Shown: one piece after another, positions 2,070 to 22,857 of the stretch
How positions within the stretch are numbered: position 1 is the first letter of the stretch
Layout of the letters: each line of letters opens with the position of its first letter
NCBI GenBank assembly: GCA_943788865.1
Contig: CALSRX010000004.1
Coordinates: 679,720-703,719, forward strand
Reading direction: 5' to 3'
DNA from: an uncultured Polaribacter sp.
GTDB taxonomy: Bacteria > Bacteroidota > Bacteroidia > Flavobacteriales > Flavobacteriaceae
Length of the DNA: 24,000 bases
The notes under the pieces: generated by a model
The model's database searches: none
Told to the model about the DNA's origin: nothing
Seen by the model: the letters and a program-made list of their open reading frames with translations, nothing else
Translations under genes and position numbers: made by a program

Positions 2070-3101
2070 TTAATATTTAATTTTTTTAAATTCTTGCCGC
2101 GAAATTACGTTTGATCTAATAAAACCAGTGACCTCACTATTGTCATTATACAATAGTTTACCAAAACTATTACCGATTGTGAAATATGTTTTTGAATCAG
2201 GATAAAAATTAATTTCACCAAAAGGATTATCACTAGCCCCATTCTTCCAAGTCCAAATCAATTGATTATTTCTCTTAATTATTTGATATATAATCTCACT
2301 TTGGTTAGATTTGTAGGTGCCAATATAGTGTTCAAAATTTTTCACATTCTTTGTAATAGAACTGTCTATAGGAATATTTAAATAATCACTAAGTTCACTA
2401 TATCTCTCTATGGCTTTATTTCGGAACTCTATATTATCCTTAGAATGTTCACCAAGCCAAGCCGTTTTATAATAAGTAACCTCATTTATATAAGTTGGGT
2501 CTAATAAAAAATAGTCAAGCATTTCGTTAGTTACTGTTCTAAAATTATAGTATTGGTAATACCAATCTTGCTCATTTTTCTGTTTTTCAATAACCCAAAA
2601 TATGTACTCACCAATTTTGGCGTCCATCATATCAATTTCATGCTTATTAACACCATAAAGAGACTTTAATTTTAAAATGAGTGAATCTTGAGTCTGAGAT
2701 GTGTTTCCTTTCTCGTTGATTAAGTTTTGAAATGCTTCATCAGAAATATTTGTGGCTCTTCCAGTTATTAATAGATTAAGATATTTTTGTGGATTTAATC
2801 TGAATTCTTCCTTGCTTACTTTTTTGTTAATTATTTTATATGCTATAGAATCTTTATTTCTGTAAATATTTATAATATTATTCGTTGTTTTTATATTTAA
2901 TTCTAATTCTTTATGTAGCTTCTTAAATAATAACATTGTGTTTTCAGCAGCTTTCCGTTCTTCATTTTTATTATTAATATTAAGAGCAATTAATATTCCT
3001 ACCACAACAAGTATTGTTTCACCAATTGCATAAAGTAAATATTTGCCTACTTTATTTTTGTTAAGTAAGTTTTGACGGATTTTACGAAAAAATTTGATCA
3101 T
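2070..3101 (-). CDS. Membrane-anchored hypothetical protein with a DUF6090-like N-terminus and an extra beta-rich C-terminal domain
   Basis: This is ORF-track 2070..3173. The likely start is the internal ATG at 3101 (MIKFFRKIRQNLLNKNKVGKYLLYAIGETILVVVGILIALNINN), which matches the N-terminal anchor I recall for the flavobacterial DUF6090 family. The C-terminal ~90 aa (YIGTYKSNQSEIIYQIIKRNNQLIWTWKNG...FYPDSKTYFTIGNSFGKLLYNDNSEVTGFIRSN) resemble the small beta domain appended to some serine hydrolases. The gene is visibly more AT-rich than its neighbours: about 20% GC in the one 60-nt line I counted (2881-2940), against about 42% in a line of the PepX gene (8401-8460). Confidence 0.75.
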   Translation of the reverse strand: MIKFFRKIRQNLLNKNKVGKYLLYAIGETILVVVGILIALNINNKNEERKAAENTMLLFKKLHKELELNIKTTNNIINIYRNKDSIAYKIINKKVSKEEFRLNPQKYLNLLITGRATNISDEAFQNLINEKGNTSQTQDSLILKLKSLYGVNKHEIDMMDAKIGEYIFWVIEKQKNEQDWYYQYYNFRTVTNEMLDYFLLDPTYINEVTYYKTAWLGEHSKDNIEFRNKAIERYSELSDYLNIPIDSSITKNVKNFEHYIGTYKSNQSEIIYQIIKRNNQLIWTWKNGASDNPFGEINFYPDSKTYFTIGNSFGKLLYNDNSEVTGFIRSNVISRQEFKKIKY

Positions 3102-3171
3102 AAGTAGTTGATTGACATCTTTAAAGATAAATAAAATTATAACAGGATTATTAAACTGAAATGTTACTAAC

Positions 3172-3201
3172 AAAAAAGCATCCTAAAAGGATGCTTTTTT
3201 T
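3172..3201 (-). terminator. Rho-independent terminator downstream of the DPP IV gene (symmetric, could act in both directions)
   Basis: AAAAAA-GCATCC-TAAAA-GGATGC-TTTTTTT. The stem is GC-rich with A and T runs on both sides. It lies 16 nt downstream of the minus-strand stop at 3217. Confidence 0.75.
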
Positions 3202-3216
3202 ATTTTAATAAAAAAA

Positions 3217-5454
3217 CTATTGCTTTACTTTAATCAAATCTTTATAAGCAAACACCTTTTTCCAATATCTCACCATTGTCTGTCTAAGATGAAAAGAAGT
3301 ATTTCCGCCTCTAATTCCATGATCTCGCATCGGATACGACATCATGTCGAACATTTTATTATGTTTGATTAGCTCGTTTGTAAGTCTTTCAAAACTTTGA
3401 TAATGCACATTATCATCGCCAGTTCCATGCATAATCATCAAGTCACCTTTTAAGTTTTTAGCATGTGTTATTGGAGAGCCAGCAATATAGTTTGCTTCAT
3501 TTTCTTCTAACAATCCCATGTATCGTTCTTGATAAATATTATCATACAAGCGCTGGTCAGCTACAAAAGCAACTGCTAATCCAGAAGTATACACATCAGG
3601 GTATCTAAACAAGCAATTCATAGTCATTTGACCACCGCCACTCCAGCCCCACATTCCAACTTTATTGGTGTCAATAAAAGGGTAGGTTGCAAACATTTTC
3701 TTTGCAGCTGCAGCTTGATCATGTGCTGCTAAAATTCCGATTTGTCCATAAATCGATTTTCTCCAATCTCTTCCTCGTGGCGTTCTTGTTCCTCGGTTAT
3801 CAATACTAGCTACAACATATCCTTGTTGTGCTAAATATTGATGCCATAAATCTCCACCGCCCCAATTATCTTGTACCGTAGAACCGGCAGGCTCTCCATA
3901 CACATAAAATATAATTGGATATTTTTTAGTTGTGTCAAAGTTTTTTGGTTTAATCATCCAAGCATCAAAAACCACCTCTCCAATATCAACTTTTATAAAC
4001 TCCTTTGGAGATAAATTTAAGGCCGCAACTTTGGTTTTTAATTCGTTATTATCTTCTAAAACACGAATGGTTTTATGCTTCTGAAGATTGATTAATGAAA
4101 TTTTATTTGGTGTGCTTGCATTTTGAAAACCATGGATGGCAAATTTTGCATCAGCAGAAATTTGATACGAATGTTGTCCAGCTTGATTCGCAGGAGTTAC
4201 TCTTTCTGGTTTTGATTTTCCGTTAATTTTACTTCTGTATAAATAACGTTGTGTGTAATTTTCTGGAGAGGCAGTGTAATATACATATCCACTTTTTGGA
4301 TCGATACAATTGATACGAACTACATCTATGTTTCCTGTAGTTATTGTTGTCGACGTTTTACCATCTCTAGATACTTTATACAAGTGTAAGTATCCATCTT
4401 TTTCACTAGTCCAAGTAAAATATTTTTCATTTTCTAACCACATAATATTATCATGAATATCTAACCAAGCATCATCTTTATCTGTTAAAATTGTTTTTAA
4501 AGACATGGTTTTGGTGTTTCCAACTCTAACAGTATTGGTGTTTTGTTTTCTGTTTAATTGTTGAATCATTACTTCGTTAGAATTTGGAATAAAATCCATT
4601 CTAGCTAAATAGTTATTTCTTGAATCTCCAGGAACATCAAACCATTTTGTTTTTCCGCCAGCAGCATTAACAACACCAACCTTTACAGCAGAATTTGTTG
4701 TTCCAACTTTCGGATATGGTAACGGAATTAATTTTGGATAAATAGAATCTACATTGTTAATCATGTAAAATGTTCCAATCCCTTTGGTATCCGATTGCCA
4801 ATAAGCTATTTGTGTTCCGTCTGGACTCCATCTAAAACCATCTCTACATCCCAATTCTTCTTCGTATACCCAGTCAAATGTGCCGTTAACGATAGAAGTA
4901 CTACCGTCAAAAGTAAGTTGTGTAATTTTATTTGTTGCAATGTTTTCTACATAAATATTATTTTTACTCACAAACCCAACGCGAGTTGCATCTGGAGAAA
5001 ATTTAGCAAACATCATTGTGGTTCTCTCAACAGATTTTCCTAATTGAGTTAATTTACCACTTTTCATGTCTAGAACCCAATAATCACCTCTTGTATTATA
5101 ACGCCAAACTTTACGAGTGTTTGTGAAAATCAACAATTTTGAATTGTCTATTGACCATTCATAATTAGAAATTGATAGTGGTTTTGTTTCTCCTTTTGGG
5201 ATTAATTGTTTTGCAGAAACAAGAACAGAGCGTTTTCCAGATGTTGCTTCATACCTAATAATATCCCTTCCGCCAACATCATTATTTCTTTGTAATGTAG
5301 AGTATCCTTTGTTGTCTTTCATCCATCTAACAGGACCATAACCTTTAGCATTATAAGTTCCGTTTTTAAAAGCATCTTCTAAAGTAAGTTTTTCTTGAGA
5401 AGAAGAAATAAATGAAATTAAACAAGCAAAAGTGAATAAAATTATTTTTTTCAT
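3217..5454 (-). CDS. Dipeptidyl-peptidase IV / prolyl oligopeptidase family S9B, secreted
   Basis: 745 aa with an N-terminal signal peptide (MKKIILFTFACLISFISSSQE). A long beta-propeller-like N-terminal half is followed by an alpha/beta hydrolase domain. The nucleophile motif is GMWGWSGGG, followed by GTGDDNVH and MRDHGI (Asp/His candidates). Confidence 0.92.
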   Translation of the reverse strand: MKKIILFTFACLISFISSSQEKLTLEDAFKNGTYNAKGYGPVRWMKDNKGYSTLQRNNDVGGRDIIRYEATSGKRSVLVSAKQLIPKGETKPLSISNYEWSIDNSKLLIFTNTRKVWRYNTRGDYWVLDMKSGKLTQLGKSVERTTMMFAKFSPDATRVGFVSKNNIYVENIATNKITQLTFDGSTSIVNGTFDWVYEEELGCRDGFRWSPDGTQIAYWQSDTKGIGTFYMINNVDSIYPKLIPLPYPKVGTTNSAVKVGVVNAAGGKTKWFDVPGDSRNNYLARMDFIPNSNEVMIQQLNRKQNTNTVRVGNTKTMSLKTILTDKDDAWLDIHDNIMWLENEKYFTWTSEKDGYLHLYKVSRDGKTSTTITTGNIDVVRINCIDPKSGYVYYTASPENYTQRYLYRSKINGKSKPERVTPANQAGQHSYQISADAKFAIHGFQNASTPNKISLINLQKHKTIRVLEDNNELKTKVAALNLSPKEFIKVDIGEVVFDAWMIKPKNFDTTKKYPIIFYVYGEPAGSTVQDNWGGGDLWHQYLAQQGYVVASIDNRGTRTPRGRDWRKSIYGQIGILAAHDQAAAAKKMFATYPFIDTNKVGMWGWSGGGQMTMNCLFRYPDVYTSGLAVAFVADQRLYDNIYQERYMGLLEENEANYIAGSPITHAKNLKGDLMIMHGTGDDNVHYQSFERLTNELIKHNKMFDMMSYPMRDHGIRGGNTSFHLRQTMVRYWKKVFAYKDLIKVKQ

Positions 5455-5583: not shown

Positions 5584-7164
5584 ATGGCAAATTATCCAAG
5601 TGTTTTTAATGATGTTATTGGCCCTGTTATGCGAGGTCCATCAAGTTCTCATTGTGCTGCTTCATTGCGAATTGGTAGAATTTGTAGAGATTTAATGGAT
5701 GCTGAATTGACAGCTGTTTTAATAGAGTTTGATCCAAATGGTTCGTTAGCAACAACACATGAAAGTCAAGGCTCAGACATGGGTCTTTTTGGTGGTTTTT
5801 TAGGTTGGGAAGCCTATGATGAAAGATTAGTGAATTCTGCAAATGAGATAAAAGCAGCAAGAATAAACGTAAATATTGAAATACTTGATATCAATGCTAC
5901 ACATCCAAACACCTATAAGTTAACCTTACACAATACAAAAGAAACACATAAAGTCATTGCAATTTCCATTGGAGGCGGAATGATTGATGTCATTGAAATT
6001 GATGGTAATGCAGTTACTATGGAAGGTGATTATTTTGAAACCTTAATTTATTGTTCTGACAAAGGAACTATTTCTGAGTTTATAGAAAAATTTATTCCGA
6101 ATGAATCGCTACAGTTTTTAGATGGAAAAACAAAGTTTTATCAAGTAAAAACAAACACTCCAATAAATGAAGATGTGTTGCAAATGCTTTCTGAATTGAA
6201 AGAAGTAATTAATATAAAGTCTATTTCACCTGTATTACCTGTGTTATCAAGAAAAGGAATTCAAGTCCCATTTAACACTTGTGATGAAATGTTAGCTTAT
6301 AATGCTGATAAAAATCTAGAACTATGGGAATTGGCAGTACATTATGAAAGTGCCAGAGGAAACATTTCTCATAAAGAAGTTTTTGAGAAAATGGGAGAGA
6401 TTATAGATATTATGGATGCTTCTATCAAAAGTGGACTAAAAGGAACCGAATTTAAAGACCGAATTTTGGGTGCACAATCTTTAGTGTTTAAAGAAAAATT
6501 AGAATCAAAAAGTTTGTTAGAAGGAGATATGATGAACACCATTATCATGTTTGTTTCTTCAATGATGGAAGTAAAAAGCTCAATGGGTGTTATTGTTGCA
6601 GCACCAACAGCAGGTTCATGTGGCGCATTACCTGGAGCAATTATTGGAGCCGCTTCGAGTTTAAATTTATCAAGAGAAGAAACAATAAAAGCCATGCTTG
6701 CCGCTTCAATTATAGGTGTGTTTATCGCTGCACATGCAACTTTTGCCGCAGAAGTTGGAGGATGCCAAGCCGAATGTGGCTCTGGCGCAGGAATGGCAGC
6801 TGCTGCGTTGGTATTTATGGCAAATGGTAGTTTACAACAATCATTGTCTGCCGCATCTTTGGCATTGCAAAACTCTTTAGGAATGATTTGTGATCCCATT
6901 GCAAATAGGGTAGAAGCTCCTTGTTTAGGAAAGAATGTATTGGCTGCAACCAATGCGCTTTCTTGTGCAAATATGGCGTTGGCAAATTATGATCATTTGA
7001 TTCCATTAGATGAAGTTATAGATACTATGGATAAAGTAGGAAAAGCTATTGATTCAGATTTACGCTGTACTGCGTTAGGCGGATTATCAATTACTAAAAC
7101 AGCTAAAGAAATTGAAGCAAAACTAGGAGAAGTTCATTCTGGTTTTGCCTTTAAAAGTTGTTAA
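5584..7164 (+). CDS. sdaA: L-serine ammonia-lyase (L-serine dehydratase), iron-sulfur dependent, fused beta-alpha single chain
   Basis: 526 aa. The N-terminus SVFNDVIGPVMRGPSSSHCAA is the characteristic GPSSSH start of the beta part. The C-terminal half carries the alpha-domain cysteines (AGSCGALPGA, GGCQAECGSG, MICDP...EAPCLGKN). Confidence 0.92.
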   Translation: MANYPSVFNDVIGPVMRGPSSSHCAASLRIGRICRDLMDAELTAVLIEFDPNGSLATTHESQGSDMGLFGGFLGWEAYDERLVNSANEIKAARINVNIEILDINATHPNTYKLTLHNTKETHKVIAISIGGGMIDVIEIDGNAVTMEGDYFETLIYCSDKGTISEFIEKFIPNESLQFLDGKTKFYQVKTNTPINEDVLQMLSELKEVINIKSISPVLPVLSRKGIQVPFNTCDEMLAYNADKNLELWELAVHYESARGNISHKEVFEKMGEIIDIMDASIKSGLKGTEFKDRILGAQSLVFKEKLESKSLLEGDMMNTIIMFVSSMMEVKSSMGVIVAAPTAGSCGALPGAIIGAASSLNLSREETIKAMLAASIIGVFIAAHATFAAEVGGCQAECGSGAGMAAAALVFMANGSLQQSLSAASLALQNSLGMICDPIANRVEAPCLGKNVLAATNALSCANMALANYDHLIPLDEVIDTMDKVGKAIDSDLRCTALGGLSITKTAKEIEAKLGEVHSGFAFKSC

Positions 7165-17480: not shown

Positions 17481-17488
17481 TATTTTTG
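17481..17488 (+). promoter_or_regulatory. Candidate -7 promoter box (TATTTTTG) for ygiQ, implying a very short or absent 5' UTR
   Basis: Fits TAnnTTTG and ends 6 nt before ATG 17495. This is one reason I prefer ATG 17495 over the TTG at 17486 used by the ORF track. Confidence 0.45.
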
Positions 17489-17494
17489 CAGCGC

Positions 17495-19453
17495 ATGAGT
17501 GAATTGAAATTAACAGATTGGTTACCAACTACAAACAAGGAGGTAAAATTAAAAGGATGGGATGAATTAGACGTCATTTTGTTTAGTGGTGATGCCTATG
17601 TAGATCATCCATCTTTTGGGCCAGCTGTGATTGGACGAATTTTAGAAAGTTACGGATTACGTGTTGCCATTGTACCACAACCAAATGTAAACGATAATTT
17701 ACAAGATTTTGAAAAATTAGGAAAACCTCGTTTGTTTTTTGCAGCAACTGGCGGTTGTATGGATCCAATGGTTTCTAATTATACCGCAAGTAAAAGAAGA
17801 CGAGATAAAGATGCATACACACCAAATGGAGATAAAGGTTTTAGACCCGATTATGCAACCTCTGTGTATTCTAAAATTTTAAAAGAAAAATTCCCTGAGG
17901 TTCCTGTTTTAATTGGCGGGATTGAAGCTTCATTAAGACGAGTAACACATTACGATTATTGGTCAGATAAACTATTGCCAACTATTTTAGAAACTTCTAA
18001 AGCTGATATGTTGGTGTATGGAATGGGAGAACAACCTTTACGAGAAATCGTTGAATTATTGCAAAAAGGCGTTCCGTTTTCTAGTTTAAAAAACATCAAA
18101 CAAACCGCCGTTTTAATCAATCAAAAAGAAGAAAAAATTCCGGTTGTAAACGATTGGGAAGATGTCACCATCAATTCTCATGAAGCCTGTTTGGCAGATA
18201 AAAAAACATTTGCATCTAACTTTAAAGTCATAGAGCAAGAATCAAACAAATTAAAAGCAAGAAGAATTTTTCAAGAAGTTGGAAAAAATACGTTGGTAAT
18301 TAATCCTCCTTTTCCAACAATGACAGAAGCAGAAATTGACAGCTCTTTTGACTTGCCTTATACGCGTTTACCCCATCCAAAATACAATAAGCGTGGGCCA
18401 ATTCCGGCGTTTGAAATGATCAAATTTTCGATTAATATTCACCGTGGTTGTTTTGGTGGATGCAGTTTCTGTACCATTTCTGCCCATCAAGGAAAATTTA
18501 TAGCAAGTAGAAGTCAAGAGTCTATTTTAAAAGAAGTAGACACGGTGGCAAACATGCCAGATTTTAAAGGGTATTTATCTGATATTGGCGGACCTTCGGC
18601 TAACATGTATCAGATGAAAGGAAAGATTCAATCTATCTGTGACAAATGTGTAGCTCCCTCTTGTATTTCGCCGGTGATTTGTAGTAATTTAGATACTTCA
18701 CACAAGCCATTAACGGAATTGTATCAGGCTGTTGATAAACATCCAAAGGTGAAAAAATCATTTATTGGAAGTGGAATCAGACATGACATGTTGGTGCCTG
18801 AATTCAATAAAAATGCAGACCCTAAAGAATTGGATGCGTACACAGAAGAAGTAATGACCAATCATGTTTCTGGTCGATTAAAAGTGGCGCCAGAGCATAC
18901 TTCTGATCCGGTGTTAAAATTGATGCGTAAACCATCATTTACCTATTTTCATAAGTTTAAAGAGCGTTTCGATAGAATTAATATCAAGAAGAAATTAAAC
19001 CTACAATTGATTCCGTATTTCATTTCTAGTCACCCAGCAAGTGAAGTAGAAGACATGGCAAACTTGGCAGCAGAAACCAAAGACATGGGTTTTCAGTTAG
19101 AGCAAGTACAAGGTTTTACACCAACTCCAATGACGGTTGCTACGGTAATTTATTATTCAGGATATCATCCGTATACTTTAAAACCAACCAAAACTCCGAA
19201 AACAAAAAAAGAACGAGAAGACCAACATCGTTTTTTCTTTTGGTATAAAAAAGAAAACAAAGATTGGATTCGAAATACTTTAAACAAAGTTGGTAGACAA
19301 GATTTGTTAAAAGTGTTGTTACCTGACAACAACTCTTGGAAGAAAAACAAAAAAGCGCAAGAGGCCAAAAATACGTTTGATGATGCCATCCCTTTTAACA
19401 GACGTAAAAAGAAAGTTTCTAGAGCTCCCCAAAAGAAGAAAACGAGGAGGTAG
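17495..19453 (+). CDS. ygiQ: YgiQ-family radical SAM protein (UPF0313)
   Basis: This is ORF-track 17486..19453 with the start moved to ATG 17495 (MSELKLTDWLPTT...). The radical-SAM cluster motif is HRGCFGGCSFCTISAHQG (CxxxCxxC). The N-terminal domain DVILFSGDAYVDHPSFG is typical of YgiQ. The C-terminal tail is strongly basic (RRKKKVSRAPQKKKTRR). Confidence 0.9.
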   Translation: MSELKLTDWLPTTNKEVKLKGWDELDVILFSGDAYVDHPSFGPAVIGRILESYGLRVAIVPQPNVNDNLQDFEKLGKPRLFFAATGGCMDPMVSNYTASKRRRDKDAYTPNGDKGFRPDYATSVYSKILKEKFPEVPVLIGGIEASLRRVTHYDYWSDKLLPTILETSKADMLVYGMGEQPLREIVELLQKGVPFSSLKNIKQTAVLINQKEEKIPVVNDWEDVTINSHEACLADKKTFASNFKVIEQESNKLKARRIFQEVGKNTLVINPPFPTMTEAEIDSSFDLPYTRLPHPKYNKRGPIPAFEMIKFSINIHRGCFGGCSFCTISAHQGKFIASRSQESILKEVDTVANMPDFKGYLSDIGGPSANMYQMKGKIQSICDKCVAPSCISPVICSNLDTSHKPLTELYQAVDKHPKVKKSFIGSGIRHDMLVPEFNKNADPKELDAYTEEVMTNHVSGRLKVAPEHTSDPVLKLMRKPSFTYFHKFKERFDRINIKKKLNLQLIPYFISSHPASEVEDMANLAAETKDMGFQLEQVQGFTPTPMTVATVIYYSGYHPYTLKPTKTPKTKKEREDQHRFFFWYKKENKDWIRNTLNKVGRQDLLKVLLPDNNSWKKNKKAQEAKNTFDDAIPFNRRKKKVSRAPQKKKTRR

Positions 19454-19463
19454 TTTTTTAAGT

Positions 19464-19600
19464 TTCGCTAACGTGTTTGTATATGAAAAGTAGCGCCATT
19501 ATACGGCACTATCTTTTCAGCTAGCGTAAACATATTAAAAAAGCGCAAGCTTTAATGACTTGCGCTTAACAAGCTATTTTTTATATACATTGTTAGCTAC
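19464..19600. repeat. Foldback element L (137 nt): imperfect palindrome with GCTAAC/GTTAGC outer box and GTATAT/ATATAC inner box
   Basis: The left arm is TTCGCTAAC-GTGTTT-GTATAT-GAAAAG-TAGC (19464-19494). The right arm is GCTA-TTTTTT-ATATAC-ATT-GTTAGCTAC (19573-19600). Paired blocks are 6+6+4 bp plus an A/T run, with unequal spacers (6 vs 3 nt). The 78-nt centre contains its own hairpins. Confidence 0.6.
19535..19567 (-). terminator. Rho-independent terminator for the minus-strand lipoprotein gene, nested in the centre of foldback L
   Basis: The minus strand reads AAGCGCAAG-TCATTAAAG-CTTGCGCTT-TTTTAATATG, a 9-bp stem (19541-19549 / 19559-19567) followed directly by a T run. In the + strand reading the T run is displaced by about 10 nt, so it is a weaker terminator for ygiQ. 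Confidence 0.7.
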
Positions 19601-19605
19601 TGGCT

Positions 19606-19620
19606 ATTATTATTATTATT
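19606..19620. repeat. (ATT)5 trinucleotide microsatellite
   Basis: Five perfect ATT units lie between foldback L and the stop codon (19631-19633) of the lipoprotein gene. Confidence 0.9.
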
Positions 19621-19630
19621 TACGCTTTTG

Positions 19631-20050
19631 TTAATCACAACCAGAGCTTAATCGAACTAAACTATATCCTGGTGTTTCAAAATATGCTTCCCCACCATTA
19701 CATTTGAATACAATTGGAGTAACTAATTCATGTCCAAAATTCAAATCAACAGTTAGCACATCGTTTTCAAATGTATATTCATTTGTTCCTGGGATGGCGT
19801 TAGAATCTCCTGCTGCAAATGATTCATATTGTGATGCGCAATCATCACCAATACAATAATAAGTATATCTAATTCCATTTTCAAAAATGTACATTGTATT
19901 TGAGATACCTTGATCACTTATTCCAGGTGTGTCGGACGGGAATAACCATTTACCTTCAATATCATATACTATAGGTGTTTCGGCCGAATCATCTTCTTCG
20001 CAGCTCACAAAACTTAATATGAGTGCACTGAGCAATAAAATTTTTTTCAT
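19631..20050 (-). CDS. Small Cys-rich lipocalin-like lipoprotein, hypothetical
   Basis: 139 aa with lipobox LSFVSCEEDD. A GKW motif follows soon after the signal, as in lipocalin-like domains of Bacteroidota. There are four further Cys residues (YYCIGDDCAS, FKCNGG, SSGCD). It is flanked by unusually long spacers (177 and 287 nt). Confidence 0.8.
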   Translation of the reverse strand: MKKILLLSALILSFVSCEEDDSAETPIVYDIEGKWLFPSDTPGISDQGISNTMYIFENGIRYTYYCIGDDCASQYESFAAGDSNAIPGTNEYTFENDVLTVDLNFGHELVTPIVFKCNGGEAYFETPGYSLVRLSSGCD

Positions 20051-20156
20051 AAGTAAAATATTAGATTATTTTTTATAAAACATTTAACAACATAAAATTC
20101 CTACCTGTTTGTTTAGTTATTTAGTAAAAAACCTCATTTGTTGCTTTTTTTTGCTT

Positions 20157-20215
20157 GTAGCTAACTGCATTTTGATATGAATCCGTTTTAATGATTTATA
20201 TCAGCAGTTAGCGAA
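20157..20215. repeat. Foldback element R (59 nt): imperfect palindrome related to element L
   Basis: GTA-GCTAACTGC-ATTT-TGATAT-GAATC-cgttttaat-GATTT-ATATCA-GCAGTTAGC-GAA. Stems are 9+6+5 bp (one G.T) with a one-sided 4-nt ATTT bulge and a 9-nt loop. It shares the GCTAAC/GTTAGC box and an xxATAT inner box with element L. Confidence 0.65.
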
Positions 20216-20337
20216 GTTATATTTTTTTGAGTTTAGAAACAAAATAAATATAGTTCTCAGAAATATTAAGAAGGTAAAAGATTCTTATTTGTGAATTATT
20301 CTTACTTTTAGGATTGATTATTTAAATAACCAATCTA

Positions 20338-22857
20338 ATGAAACTTACCAAACCTATTTTTTTACTGTTTTTTATTTTATTAATTACTAGCGCAACACAA
20401 GCACAAGATTATTTTTTTAAAGACAAAGCGCCTTTTAATAAAACCATACCAACTCCAGAAGAATTTTTGGGGTATCCTATTGGAGAGCAACACACACGTC
20501 ACGATCAAATAGTAGCCTATTTTTATAAACTTGCGGAGGTTTCTGATAGAGCTACGATAGAAGTATACGGAAAAACACATGAAAACAGAAAATTGGTGAT
20601 GCTCACCATTTCTACCAAAGAAAATCTATCAAATTTAGCCTCTTTAAAAGAAAAACATTTACAATTTGTAAACCCGAGTTTGAGTCCAAAAAACTATGAT
20701 GAAGTCCCAATTTTTATTCAATTAGGATACAATGTACACGGAAACGAACCATCAAGTTCAGAAGCAGCTTTATTAACTGCGTATACATTAGTGGCTTCAA
20801 ACAATGCAGAGGTAACCAATTATTTGAATAAGTCGGTCATTTTTATCGACCCAACCATAAATCCAGACGGAAGAGATAGACACACACAATGGGCAAATCA
20901 ATACAAAGCGAAAGCATTGGTTTCAGACAATACAGATGCAGAACACAACGAAGCTTGGCCAGGAGGTAGAACAAATCATTATTGGTTCGATTTAAATAGA
21001 GATTGGTTGTTGGGTGTGCATCCAGAGAGTCAAGGTAAATTAAAATGGATGCACAATTGGTATCCAAATGTGGTTACAGACTTCCATGAAATGGGCACCA
21101 ATAGCAATCACTTTTTTGAGCCAATGAAACCTATTGGTTCTTTAGATCCAATCATGCCAAAAGAAAATTACGAGGATTTAAATAATTTATTTGCAAAGTA
21201 TTTTTCAAGTGCTCTAGACAAAATAGGGTCTTTTTATTACACCAAAGAATCGTTTGACGGAACCTATCCTGGGTATGGTTCTTCGTATCCAGATTTACAA
21301 GGTGGTTTGGCATTGTTATTTGAGCAGGCAAGTTCTCGCGGACATGTACAAGATACAGATTTCGGGAAGATTACTTTTGCATTTACCATTAGAAACCAAT
21401 TCACCTCTGGTTTTGCAACCCTAAAAGCAGCAGTAGAAAATAAAGCCTACTTAAGAAAATACCAGCAAACATTTTTCAAATCAGCCATGACTCAAAAAGC
21501 AGCAACAGGTTTTGCTGGATATGAATTTGGAGACGCGTATGATATGAATCGTAATAAAGCCTTTGTTGAGCAATTGTTATCACATAAAATTAAGGTATAT
21601 AAAAACGGAGATAAGTTTGTGGTTCCTCTAAAACAGCCACAGCATAGAATGGTGCAAACCATGTTTGAAACCTATTCTAAATATAGAGACAGTGTGTATT
21701 ACGATGCATCGGCTTGGAGTGTTGCTAATTTTTACAACATGAACTACAAAGGATTGAAATCTGTTAAATTAGGAACGGAAATTACATCCGCAGAAAACCT
21801 TGTAAACAACGCAAAAATTCAAAGAGCTAGTTACGCCTACATTATAGATTGGGATGATTACAATACGCCAGCAGCCTTATATTATATGCAAGCTAAAGGA
21901 TTAACAGTGTCATCTGCATTCAAGCCTTTTACAATCAATACCTCAGGAGGAAAGAAAAGTTTCAACTACGGTAGTTTGTTAATTCCGATTAGCAAACAGA
22001 AAAAATCGAGTGCAGAAGTATATCAAATTGTTTCAGATGCACAGGCAAAATACAATGTGCCAATTTTCGGAACAAACAGTGGGTATAGCATCAAAGGAAT
22101 CGATTTAGGATCTAATAATTTTAGAGCATTGAGCAAACCTAAAGTAGCCATGTTAATTGGCGAAGGTGTTAGTTCTTCAGAGGCAGGAGAAGTATGGCAT
22201 TTGTTAGATACAAGAGTAGATATGCCAATTACTAAAATTAGAATGAATAGTTTTGGAAGAGCAAACCTTGATAAGTACAATACACTGGTTTTAGTTTCTG
22301 GGGGTTATGCCGATTTAGATTCTGTTAAAAGAGAAAAACTAAAAAACTGGATTTCTAAAGGAAACACGATTGTTACCATCGCTAGAGGTTCTAAATGGAT
22401 GATTGATAAAAAAATGGTGAAAGAAAGCTTAACAAAAAAACCGAAGTCAAAAGAAAAAGAAGCAACCAAAAGATTGCCCTATGTAGATGCTGGTGAATAT
22501 GCAGGAAGAGATCGAGTAGGAGGCATCATTTTAGAAGTAGATTTAGATGTAACACATCCTTTAGGGTTTGGATATCGTTCTGCTAAAATGCCTGTTTATA
22601 AAAATAATATGGTGTTTTTAGCACCGAGTAAAAACCCGTATGTAACTGTTGCAAAATATTCTGAAAGTCCACATATCGATGGATACATCACAAAAAAGAA
22701 TTTAGACACCTATATAAAACCTTCTGCGTCGTTAATTGTGAGTACGATTGGTAGAGGGAGAGCAGTGCTATTTGCAGACAATCCAAATTTTAGAGGCGCT
22801 TGGTACGGAACCAATAAATTGTTTTTAAATGCACTCTTTTTCGGGAATAAATTTTAA
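20338..22857 (+). CDS. M14 family zinc carboxypeptidase with large C-terminal extension, secreted
   Basis: 839 aa with signal peptide LITSATQAQD. The zinc ligand motif is YNVHGNEPSS (HxxE), with the later His in TDFHEMG. The roughly 380 aa C-terminal region resembles the amidotransferase-like domain seen in long flavobacterial M14 proteins (from memory). Confidence 0.9.
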   Translation: MKLTKPIFLLFFILLITSATQAQDYFFKDKAPFNKTIPTPEEFLGYPIGEQHTRHDQIVAYFYKLAEVSDRATIEVYGKTHENRKLVMLTISTKENLSNLASLKEKHLQFVNPSLSPKNYDEVPIFIQLGYNVHGNEPSSSEAALLTAYTLVASNNAEVTNYLNKSVIFIDPTINPDGRDRHTQWANQYKAKALVSDNTDAEHNEAWPGGRTNHYWFDLNRDWLLGVHPESQGKLKWMHNWYPNVVTDFHEMGTNSNHFFEPMKPIGSLDPIMPKENYEDLNNLFAKYFSSALDKIGSFYYTKESFDGTYPGYGSSYPDLQGGLALLFEQASSRGHVQDTDFGKITFAFTIRNQFTSGFATLKAAVENKAYLRKYQQTFFKSAMTQKAATGFAGYEFGDAYDMNRNKAFVEQLLSHKIKVYKNGDKFVVPLKQPQHRMVQTMFETYSKYRDSVYYDASAWSVANFYNMNYKGLKSVKLGTEITSAENLVNNAKIQRASYAYIIDWDDYNTPAALYYMQAKGLTVSSAFKPFTINTSGGKKSFNYGSLLIPISKQKKSSAEVYQIVSDAQAKYNVPIFGTNSGYSIKGIDLGSNNFRALSKPKVAMLIGEGVSSSEAGEVWHLLDTRVDMPITKIRMNSFGRANLDKYNTLVLVSGGYADLDSVKREKLKNWISKGNTIVTIARGSKWMIDKKMVKESLTKKPKSKEKEATKRLPYVDAGEYAGRDRVGGIILEVDLDVTHPLGFGYRSAKMPVYKNNMVFLAPSKNPYVTVAKYSESPHIDGYITKKNLDTYIKPSASLIVSTIGRGRAVLFADNPNFRGAWYGTNKLFLNALFFGNKF

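Follow-up and report, generated by a model that had tools for sequence, protein, structure and literature searches.

The DNA analyzed here (the window) is a stretch of 24,000 nt from an uncultured Polaribacter sp. (assembly GCA_943788865.1, contig CALSRX010000004.1, positions 679,720 to 703,719 of the forward strand). Between a ygiQ-type radical SAM gene and an M14 carboxypeptidase gene, it carries a lipoprotein gene bracketed by two imperfect palindromes, here called foldback L and foldback R. We conclude with good confidence that window positions 19473-20165 are a cassette inserted site-specifically in a lone attC-like hairpin, within an integron-like gene-capture system of Polaribacter. The insertion, an empty site, a second occupant of that site, the swap of tips between foldbacks, structural covariation, and the adjacency of cassette arrays to a recombinase gene were all observed. 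An earlier note, made from the letters of the window, had proposed that a circular cassette with a single open reading frame (ORF) was inserted within the core of a resident foldback, and both the empty site and the second occupant support that proposal.

One insertion site in three states

The resident recombination site begins 10 nt past the ygiQ stop codon. In a sister species (L111/L112), the sequence after ygiQ reads TTTCGCTAAT-TGCATTTTGATATGAATCCGTTTCAATGATTTATATCAGCA-GTTAGCGAA, a single foldback whose tips match (TTCGCTAAT...GTTAGCGAA); the lipoprotein gene is absent. This is the empty site that the earlier note had predicted. The M14 protein of the sister species is 89% identical to that of the window, and the flanking genes are 84% identical at the DNA level. 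When 19473-20165 is removed from the window, what remains differs from the empty site at 2 positions in the foldback of ~70 nt. The crossover may lie anywhere in the 6-bp GCTAAC that both cassette ends carry (19467-19472 and 20160-20165).

The third state is found in P. porphyrae. Its ygiQ stop codon is followed by the same TTTTCGCTAAC, and the other side of the site has the same 37-nt flank and an R-type foldback, but the site is occupied by a different cassette, with two ORFs and its own self-complementary tips (GTTGTAGCAC...GTGCTACAAC). The flank is kept between the window and P. porphyrae despite a different next gene, and foldbacks homologous to foldback R stand at the same site in both P. 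porphyrae and L111. Judged from these alignments, the resident hairpin after ygiQ is reused by different cassettes in different species. Among 80 genomes with relatives of ygiQ, only P. porphyrae shared the junction; none had the M14 or the lipoprotein gene downstream, and none had an empty site. An exact-match metagenome scan for the predicted empty-site 20-mer TTCGCTAACTGCATTTTGAT returned 7 hits, all of them chance matches on unrelated contigs (six at the same GC-rich locus). The scan missed the real empty site because that site reads AAT instead of AAC.

The sister-species locus has further features of its own. An aminotransferase gene that the window does not have lies between the empty site and the M14 gene (L111 4583-5806), flanked by ~75-nt direct repeats of the site flank (~4505-4580 and 5875-5960) of which the window has one copy. 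Within this flank, the window (20223-20229) and P. porphyrae read GTTATATTTTTTTGAG and the sister species reads GTTATCAAAAAATGAG (L111 ~4516-4522), with an A-run in place of the T-run. Elsewhere, a lone matched-tip foldback (AGCACAAC...GTTGTGCG) follows an RluA-like gene next to ygiQ in a Bacteroidetes metagenome-assembled genome from Guaymas (L027 2899-3042); it is apparently another unoccupied site.

The lipoprotein cassette in other contexts

A lipoprotein homolog that is 92% identical occurs in three different contexts (L087, L088 and L089), and a 68% identical homolog occurs in a fourth (L090). On the gene strand, the sequence shared by the window and the homologous loci starts at GTT(A/G)GCTAC and stops at ATAGCCAGTAGCTAAC(AA). 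Beyond these boundaries the sequences are unrelated, yet they are again foldbacks with xxxxAAC...GTTxxxx ends. The lipoprotein cassette occurs with the same boundaries in at least five other contexts, and in five loci compared with the window, homology starts at GTTAGCTAC and ends at GTAGCTAAC(AA). L088 has the whole of foldback L in common with the window, and the homology stops at GTT. The same protein (P0001) is encoded in near-identical cassettes in L087, L089 and L088, and the foldback bodies of the first two (L087 2771-2917 and L089 826-972) are unrelated to that of the third (L088 561-706).

The lipoprotein gene is not the orphan that the earlier note took it for, since it has 640 homologs in marine Bacteroidota. 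Its distant homologs (Saprospiraceae loci, L091, L104) had no foldbacks of this family, and the gene family is therefore older than its mobilization. The loci of these distant homologs carry small tandem ORFs followed by a different, conserved direct repeat of ~30 nt, AAACCATRGSCATATCTTCTTCYTTCAAYTCAG (L091 at ~4960, 5421 and 5870; L104 at 10403; L108 at 5655). The array in L104 begins directly after a tRNA gene.

Tip exchange and conserved structure of the foldbacks

The four 9-mers at the tips of the two foldbacks (X, Y', Y and X' in Table 1) were all confirmed by position. The reciprocal swap that the earlier note had read from them extends well past this locus. In 27 cassettes from eight loci, tip complementarity at positions 1-7 beyond the triplet was 94% across a cassette; the values were 45% inside a foldback and 40% between randomly paired tips. 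A permutation test of the tips at positions 4-10 gave p <= 5e-5. The inverted ends of cassettes reach 13 nt and, 8 nt past the triplet, include a C/A mismatch that is conserved (e.g., in L105, and in the window at 19592-19604 and 20153-20165). They come in two flavors, (A/T)AC-N7-AAC with GTT-N7-AT(T/A) and GCC-N7-AAC with GTT-N7-AGC.

Members of the foldback family share the layout xxxxAAC-3 nt-stem...stem-6 nt-GTTxxxx. We aligned 23 repeats from genomes other than that of the window. In this alignment, 97% of cells were paired and 11 of the 16 pairs had double-sided changes; the sequences had been preselected for a perfect 6-bp L box and outer stem. None of 500 shuffles reached the observed pairing, and slid controls reached 25-42%. 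The inner helix has 7 pairs, 6 of them with double changes. AAC and GTT were invariant in 23/23 repeats, which were themselves selected for AAC...GTT ends, and by eye the purine/pyrimidine rule of integron sites (RYYYAAC/GTTRRRY) is kept only beside the triplet (e.g., TGCCAAC, GGGTAAC and GTTGGCA). Covariation supports the L box and the inner helix, and the asymmetry of the sites lies in a conserved 3-nt versus 6-nt spacer, not in single extrahelical bases. The earlier note had counted this 3/6 spacing as a deviation; it is instead the signature of the family.

A covariance model built from the 23 repeats (R1) had exactly two matches with E < 0.1 in the window, both on the minus strand. Foldback L matched at full length (19460-19604; 66.5 bits, E 2e-12), and foldback R matched at 20153-20219 (23.9 bits, E 0.002). 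Over 1.04 Mb of related loci, the model gave 46 matches, all on the cassette strand. With the exception of the lone foldback of L027, all were in cassette arrays or flanking cassettes. A simple finder of AAC...GTT stems was discarded as evidence for its high background (752 hits vs 534 in shuffled sequence) and served only as a guide to curation.

Both foldbacks of the window also stand out by themselves. Foldback L has a long-range stem with 17-nt arms that are 88% complementary; the same body stands behind the homologous cassette of L088, and L101 has a related one. Foldback R (20160-20212) has a DNA folding z-score of -6.6, and 0/200 shuffles fold as well. The pattern GCTAAC-N15-45-GTTAGC occurs once in the window, with 0.00 occurrences expected from shuffles. 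The right tip of foldback R (GTTAGCTAC) is part of the cassette, and the loop of this foldback recurs in L089 and in a phage site described below.

Cassette arrays beside a tyrosine recombinase gene

The locus L090 is a run of small genes on the same strand, each followed by a foldback. The genes encode a toxin-antitoxin pair, a DUF6090 protein, an aspartic protease, the lipoprotein and others. Each tip after GTT has its reverse complement before AAC in the next foldback (GTTGTGC/GCACAAC; GTTGGCATT/AATGCCAAC).

In 4/4 Polaribacter genomes (L101, ALD11, KT 15 and P. huanghezhanensis), a conserved ATATTTGATTnnATATAAC-NN-G/TT is found 32 nt past the stop codon of a tyrosine recombinase gene, and the first cassette starts there (the slash marks the point of exchange). 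Written out, this entry site is ...ATATAAC-NN-G/TT, and in all four genomes the far tip of the first cassette is complementary to the entry-site tip. In L101, G/TTATGGGC comes after the recombinase gene, GCCCATAAC closes the first cassette, and later cassettes include a homolog of the lipoprotein gene. The arrays of the other three genomes consist of small ORFs without known domains, with repeats of ~125 nt between them; the ALD11 sequence is CP025119 and that of KT 15 is LT670850. Recombinase gene and array occur together in four different neighborhoods (after MscL, a tRNA-Met gene, RecJ and TamB; L101, L105, L106 and L107), and the whole platform has therefore moved.

Two further observations concern these arrays. 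An IS110-family element lies inside a foldback of L101 (4478-5770; also in L102 and L103), between the left box (GCCCATAAC) and the stem, an arrangement reminiscent of IS1111-attC elements, whose targets are integron attC sites. The array of ALD11 includes cassettes of ~0.45-0.6 kb without called ORFs (L105 12460-12890, 17327-17755 and 20454-20880); one is duplicated within the array, and they contain internal repeats rich in GCGGAATTT/GAACGCTGAAAA.

The recombinase has 385 aa and is conserved at ~70% identity across many named Polaribacter genomes among the top matches. Its best profile is XerA (218 bits, cut-off 220). Scores against the IntI models were 210 bits for TIGR02249 (cut-off 265, in two stretches) and 154 for PRK15417 (cut-off 435). 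The catalytic motifs are intact by eye in the translation. In an alignment to VchIntIA (2a3v), 13 residues replace IntIA residues 189-246, the 58-residue region of the IntI-specific domain (intI_Cterm, I2 helix), and the protein has ~95 extra residues at its N-terminus. Recombinases without the IntI-specific domain are not counted as IntI (PMC4889954). That domain is absent here, and we therefore do not file the system as an integron.

Foldbacks in phage genomes

The foldback repeat was also found in viral contigs, including one clear phage in which a DNA methyltransferase gene lies between two copies. The cultured Polaribacter phages P12002S (L120) and P12002L (L121, record 30000-48689) each have at least 8 model matches with E < 0.01. 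Their copies have swapped tips and lie between small early genes and methyltransferase genes, with ORFs opposite to the foldback orientation. Both are virulent phages.

A cluster of attC sites lacking integron integrases (CALIN) with two sites was reported in P12002L in 2023 using HattCI/Infernal; of the two, attC1 did not recombine with IntI1 and attC2 did (PMC9892861). The attC1 site is a short member of the foldback family that shares both its 3/6 spacers and its CATTAAAACG loop with foldback R. The phage region has many more swapped-tip copies than the two sites that were predicted. In the 2023 paper, the sites are read as classical attC, and the chromosomal platform of the host with its recombinase is not described there.

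Organization of the window locus

The features of the locus are collected in Table 1. Read on the minus strand, the cassette consists of a tip, a 5' leader of ~106 nt, the lipoprotein gene and the cassette's own foldback L. The leader presumably carries the gene's own expression signals. A scan for terminators found 2, both inside foldback L, versus 0.5 expected. The lipoprotein has no Pfam match, and its AlphaFold2 model (predicted local distance difference test score 55) is too poor for a fold search. The window as a whole is a peptidase-rich housekeeping region and contained no Rfam family at the gathering score. Its ygiQ gene assigns the organism to Polaribacter. Identical copies of the locus are present on many marine metagenome contigs, and the region is invariant among the six that were compared.

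Table 1. Features of the lipoprotein cassette and its surroundings (window coordinates).
Feature	Position	Strand	Remarks
ygiQ-type radical SAM gene	17486..19453	+	Pfam Radical_SAM_N, E 3e-123; syntenic in relatives
X, tip and core TTCGCTAAC	19464..19472	+	Right-hand cassette junction; identical beside ygiQ in P. porphyrae
X on the cassette strand, G/TTAGCGAA		-	Chromosomal half of the resident site; empty-site version in L111 is TTCGCTAAT
Y', GTTAGCTAC	19592-19600		Position confirmed
Y, GTAGCTAAC	20157-20165		Position confirmed
X', GTTAGCGAA	20207-20215		Position confirmed
Inserted cassette, 693 bp	19473..20165	-	Deletion recreates the sister-species sequence; boundaries common to five other loci
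Foldback L, the cassette's own attC-like site	19460..19604	-	AGCTAAC-AAT-GTATAT...ATATAC-AAACAC-GTTAGCG
Two intrinsic-terminator-like hairpins inside foldback L	19491..19567 (19541-19567, 19491-19511)	-	Directly downstream of the lipoprotein gene
Lipoprotein gene, 139 aa	19631..20050	-	Signal peptide ...LSFVSC, then EEDD; all-beta
Cassette 5' leader	20051..20156	-	Conserved in an alignment of the window, L087, L088 and L089
Foldback R, resident short attC-like hairpin	20153..20219	-	CGCTAAC-TGC-TGATATAAATC-ATTAAAACG-GATTCATATCA-AAATGCA-GTTAGCT
Resident-site flank, 37 nt	20216..20252	-	Minus strand TTTGTTTCTAAACTCAAAAAAATATAACTTC; plus strand gives a T-run after the hairpin
M14 carboxypeptidase gene	20338..22857	+	Pfam Peptidase_M14; syntenic in the sister species; chromosomal neighbor outside the element

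A 19-nt stretch within the lipoprotein gene (ATTCAAATCAACAGTTAGC, 19739-19757) and the right arm of foldback R (20194-20212) share 84% identity; this likeness is probably due to chance. Farther away, a 367-aa ORF (2070-3173, minus strand) matches DUF6090 weakly and short of the Pfam cut-off (E 2e-4). DUF6090 is also encoded by a cassette of L090, and no foldback lies near the ORF of the window.

Comparison with known systems

Sedentary chromosomal integrons, such as the Vibrio cholerae superintegron with its IntIA and its attC sites of the V. cholerae repeat type, likewise have a recombinase gene beside an entry site and long arrays of small, mostly co-oriented ORFs without known domains, together with toxin-antitoxin pairs. 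An imperfect and fairly homogeneous palindrome of ~125 nt comes after each ORF, as in those integrons; its ends are AAC...GTT, and it has a second paired box. Exchange is at G/TT, with the right tip coming from the next cassette; we see this crossover in the 27 cassettes and in the comparison of empty and occupied sites, with one exception at an AAC end. An attI-like entry site lies beside the recombinase gene in 4/4 genomes, and its AAC-N2-GTT resembles the attI simple site. Even the insertion of an IS110-family element in a site is shared.

Unlike an integron integrase, the Polaribacter recombinase is XerA/Xer-like, with 13 aa where VchIntIA has 58 and an N-terminal extension of ~95 aa. Its gene is co-directed with the cassettes, and the entry site lies past its stop codon. 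The paired tip is 10 nt long with a conserved C/A mismatch, the sites have a 3 x 6-nt internal loop in place of single extrahelical bases, and RYYY/RRRY is not conserved. The hosts are Flavobacteriia. IntegronFinder-based genome surveys report for Bacteroidetes only In0 elements and one complete integron, and Flavobacteriia are not mentioned. The literature that we examined reports nothing on Polaribacter chromosomes, although publication elsewhere is possible.

A CALIN as defined by IntegronFinder has at least 2 attC within 4 kb and no integron integrase nearby. The element in the window has this form: a pair of attC-like sites, recognized by R1, stand 555 nt apart with one cassette, and the surrounding sequence that was examined contains no integrase within 10 kb of it. 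It would count as a CALIN if the attC model scored these sites. Unlike in a CALIN, the resident site lies at the 3' end of a housekeeping gene, where a conserved hairpin is reused by different cassettes in different species. Repetitive extragenic palindromes (REP) with their associated tyrosine transposases (RAYT), and elements of the IS200/IS605 family, similarly involve short imperfect intergenic palindromes, some of them at gene 3' ends. The foldbacks differ from these in that they bound cassettes with cassette-specific self-complementary tips and have junctions at AAC/GTT, and no HUH (Y1) transposase gene was present in any gene table around the arrays. A transposon with terminal inverted repeats was rejected as a candidate since the inverted ends differ from cassette to cassette.

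The CTX phage provides a precedent of another kind: XerCD, a tyrosine recombinase of the Xer type, integrates its hairpin-folded single-stranded DNA at dif. The Polaribacter recombinase is Xer-like too, but the CTX system has neither cassette arrays nor swapped tips, and its recombinase gene has no dedicated entry site beside it.

Alternative explanations

Several features seen here are integron hallmarks, namely the AAC...GTT ends and second paired box of the sites, their swapped tips, and their arrangement in arrays. They could mean that the cassettes are canonical and form a CALIN, with ordinary attC sites moved by a true IntI, either encoded elsewhere in the genomes or brought in by mobile integrons, and the adjacent Xer-like recombinase a mere bystander. 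The two sites of P12002L predicted to be attC by HattCI/Infernal, one of which recombined with IntI1, fit this idea (PMC9892861). However, 4/4 arrays start 32 nt past the stop codon of the Xer-like recombinase with a tip matching the first cassette. The recombinase scores below the cut-offs of the IntI models and has no IntI insertion, no IntI was seen near any array, and P12002L attC1, a clear family member, did not recombine with IntI1. Surveys with IntegronFinder also mention few elements in Bacteroidetes and none in Flavobacteriia. We regard canonical integron cassettes as improbable.

If the 385-aa protein were instead the housekeeping resolvase of chromosome dimers, the site would be dif and the cassettes would be piled-up elements resembling the integrative mobile elements that make use of Xer recombination (IMEX). 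The best profile of the protein (XerA, 218 vs 220), its conservation at ~70% in named Polaribacter among the top matches, and the integration of the CTX phage as a folded single strand via XerCD all speak for this, as does the fact that in single-recombinase Xer systems dif is often beside the xer gene. A dif site bound to the terminus would not be expected in the four different neighborhoods in which the recombinase gene and its array occur, and the enzyme has an extra N-terminal domain of ~95 aa. IMEX are also not known to form arrays in which a dozen or more cassettes are bounded by hairpins, or to have lone sites elsewhere. A dif origin thus seems unlikely to us.

Simple repeats would need no dedicated recombinase. 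If the foldbacks were REP-like or terminator-like, the lipoprotein gene could have been gained by homologous recombination or slippage between short cores. Foldback L does contain terminator hairpins, foldback R with its T-run stands at the end of ygiQ, and junctions occur at both foldback ends. But a shared core of 3-6 bp is too short for homologous recombination, the junctions of 27 cassettes fall exactly at AAC/GTT with each cassette having its own self-complementary tips, the stems are kept by compensatory changes, and the arrays are strictly tied to a recombinase gene and a conserved entry site. Overall, we regard this explanation as very improbable. As for coincidence of the swapped tips in AT-rich DNA, only four positions discriminate within the window; the empty site, the independent model matches and the permutation result (p <= 5e-5 over 27 cassettes) have already refuted it, and we attach practically no weight to it.

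Several points weigh against the insertion of the cassette by an integron-like system as we describe it. Neither the window nor the sequence up to 10 kb from the lipoprotein gene contains a recombinase gene, and its presence in the source genome is suggested only by its conservation in named Polaribacter genomes. The recombinase does not have the IntI domain for reading folded attC, and its use of a single-stranded substrate is proposed by analogy. Both the cassette circle and the activity of the recombinase are putative. The empty site reads AAT, not AAC, and may be an inactive variant. Because the outer stem was a selection criterion for the aligned repeats, only the inner helix is an unbiased test of covariation. 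Finally, the homology between L087/L089 and L088 breaks right after GCTAACAA, which exchange at the GTT end alone does not predict; given this break right after GTAGCTAACAA, exchange is also possible at the AAC end of the foldback.

Proposed mechanism

We propose that site-specific recombination placed the single-gene cassette of 693 bp in foldback R, 10 nt past the ygiQ stop codon. The chromosomal platform of this system comprises the gene for the 385-aa tyrosine recombinase, an attI-like site 32 nt past its stop codon, and a cassette array. Each cassette ends in the order [7-10-nt tip]AAC, 3-nt spacer, stem, variable body, complementary stem, 6-nt spacer and GTT[tip]. Read on the ORF strand, the GTT/AAC triplet that closes the foldback on its 3' side would be the point of exchange. 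The tip after GTT would therefore always come from the next cassette, which would explain the reciprocal swap between the tips of foldbacks L and R.

The platform recombinase is the probable enzyme. It may act on a folded single strand or a cruciform, in which the R-box and L-box duplexes would serve as its two binding sites as they do in integron attC. The cassette would travel as a circle with the junction GTAGCTAAC-[body L]-GTTAGCTAC, and the empty junction would read TTCGCTAAC-TGCATTTTG. The lone hairpin downstream of ygiQ would then be a secondary landing site outside the array beside the recombinase gene. Beyond this locus, we lean toward the view that Polaribacter, probably along with other marine Flavobacteriaceae and virulent phages, has a distinct integron-type capture system, with a Xer/XerA-like integrase that has an N-terminal domain of its own and not the additional domain of IntI, hairpins with a 3 x 6-nt internal loop, and loading of lone hairpins at the 3' ends of housekeeping genes.

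Implications

What defines an integron is an integrase whose special domain is considered essential for recombining folded attC. Polaribacter is a genus of abundant marine bacteria, and here we find full arrays, an entry site, lone landing sites and phage copies that combine the logic of integrons with a Xer-like recombinase. The locus of the window is a clean natural example, since the same site is seen empty, with one cassette, and with another. If the recombinase is the integrase, then the accepted definition of integrons leaves out an entire branch of cassette systems, and counts of gene capture in the ocean made with standard tools are too low. If this is true, capture of hairpin-bounded cassettes is either older than IntI or evolved twice, and a natural case for comparison would make it possible to test whether integron recombination arose from Xer-type enzymes.

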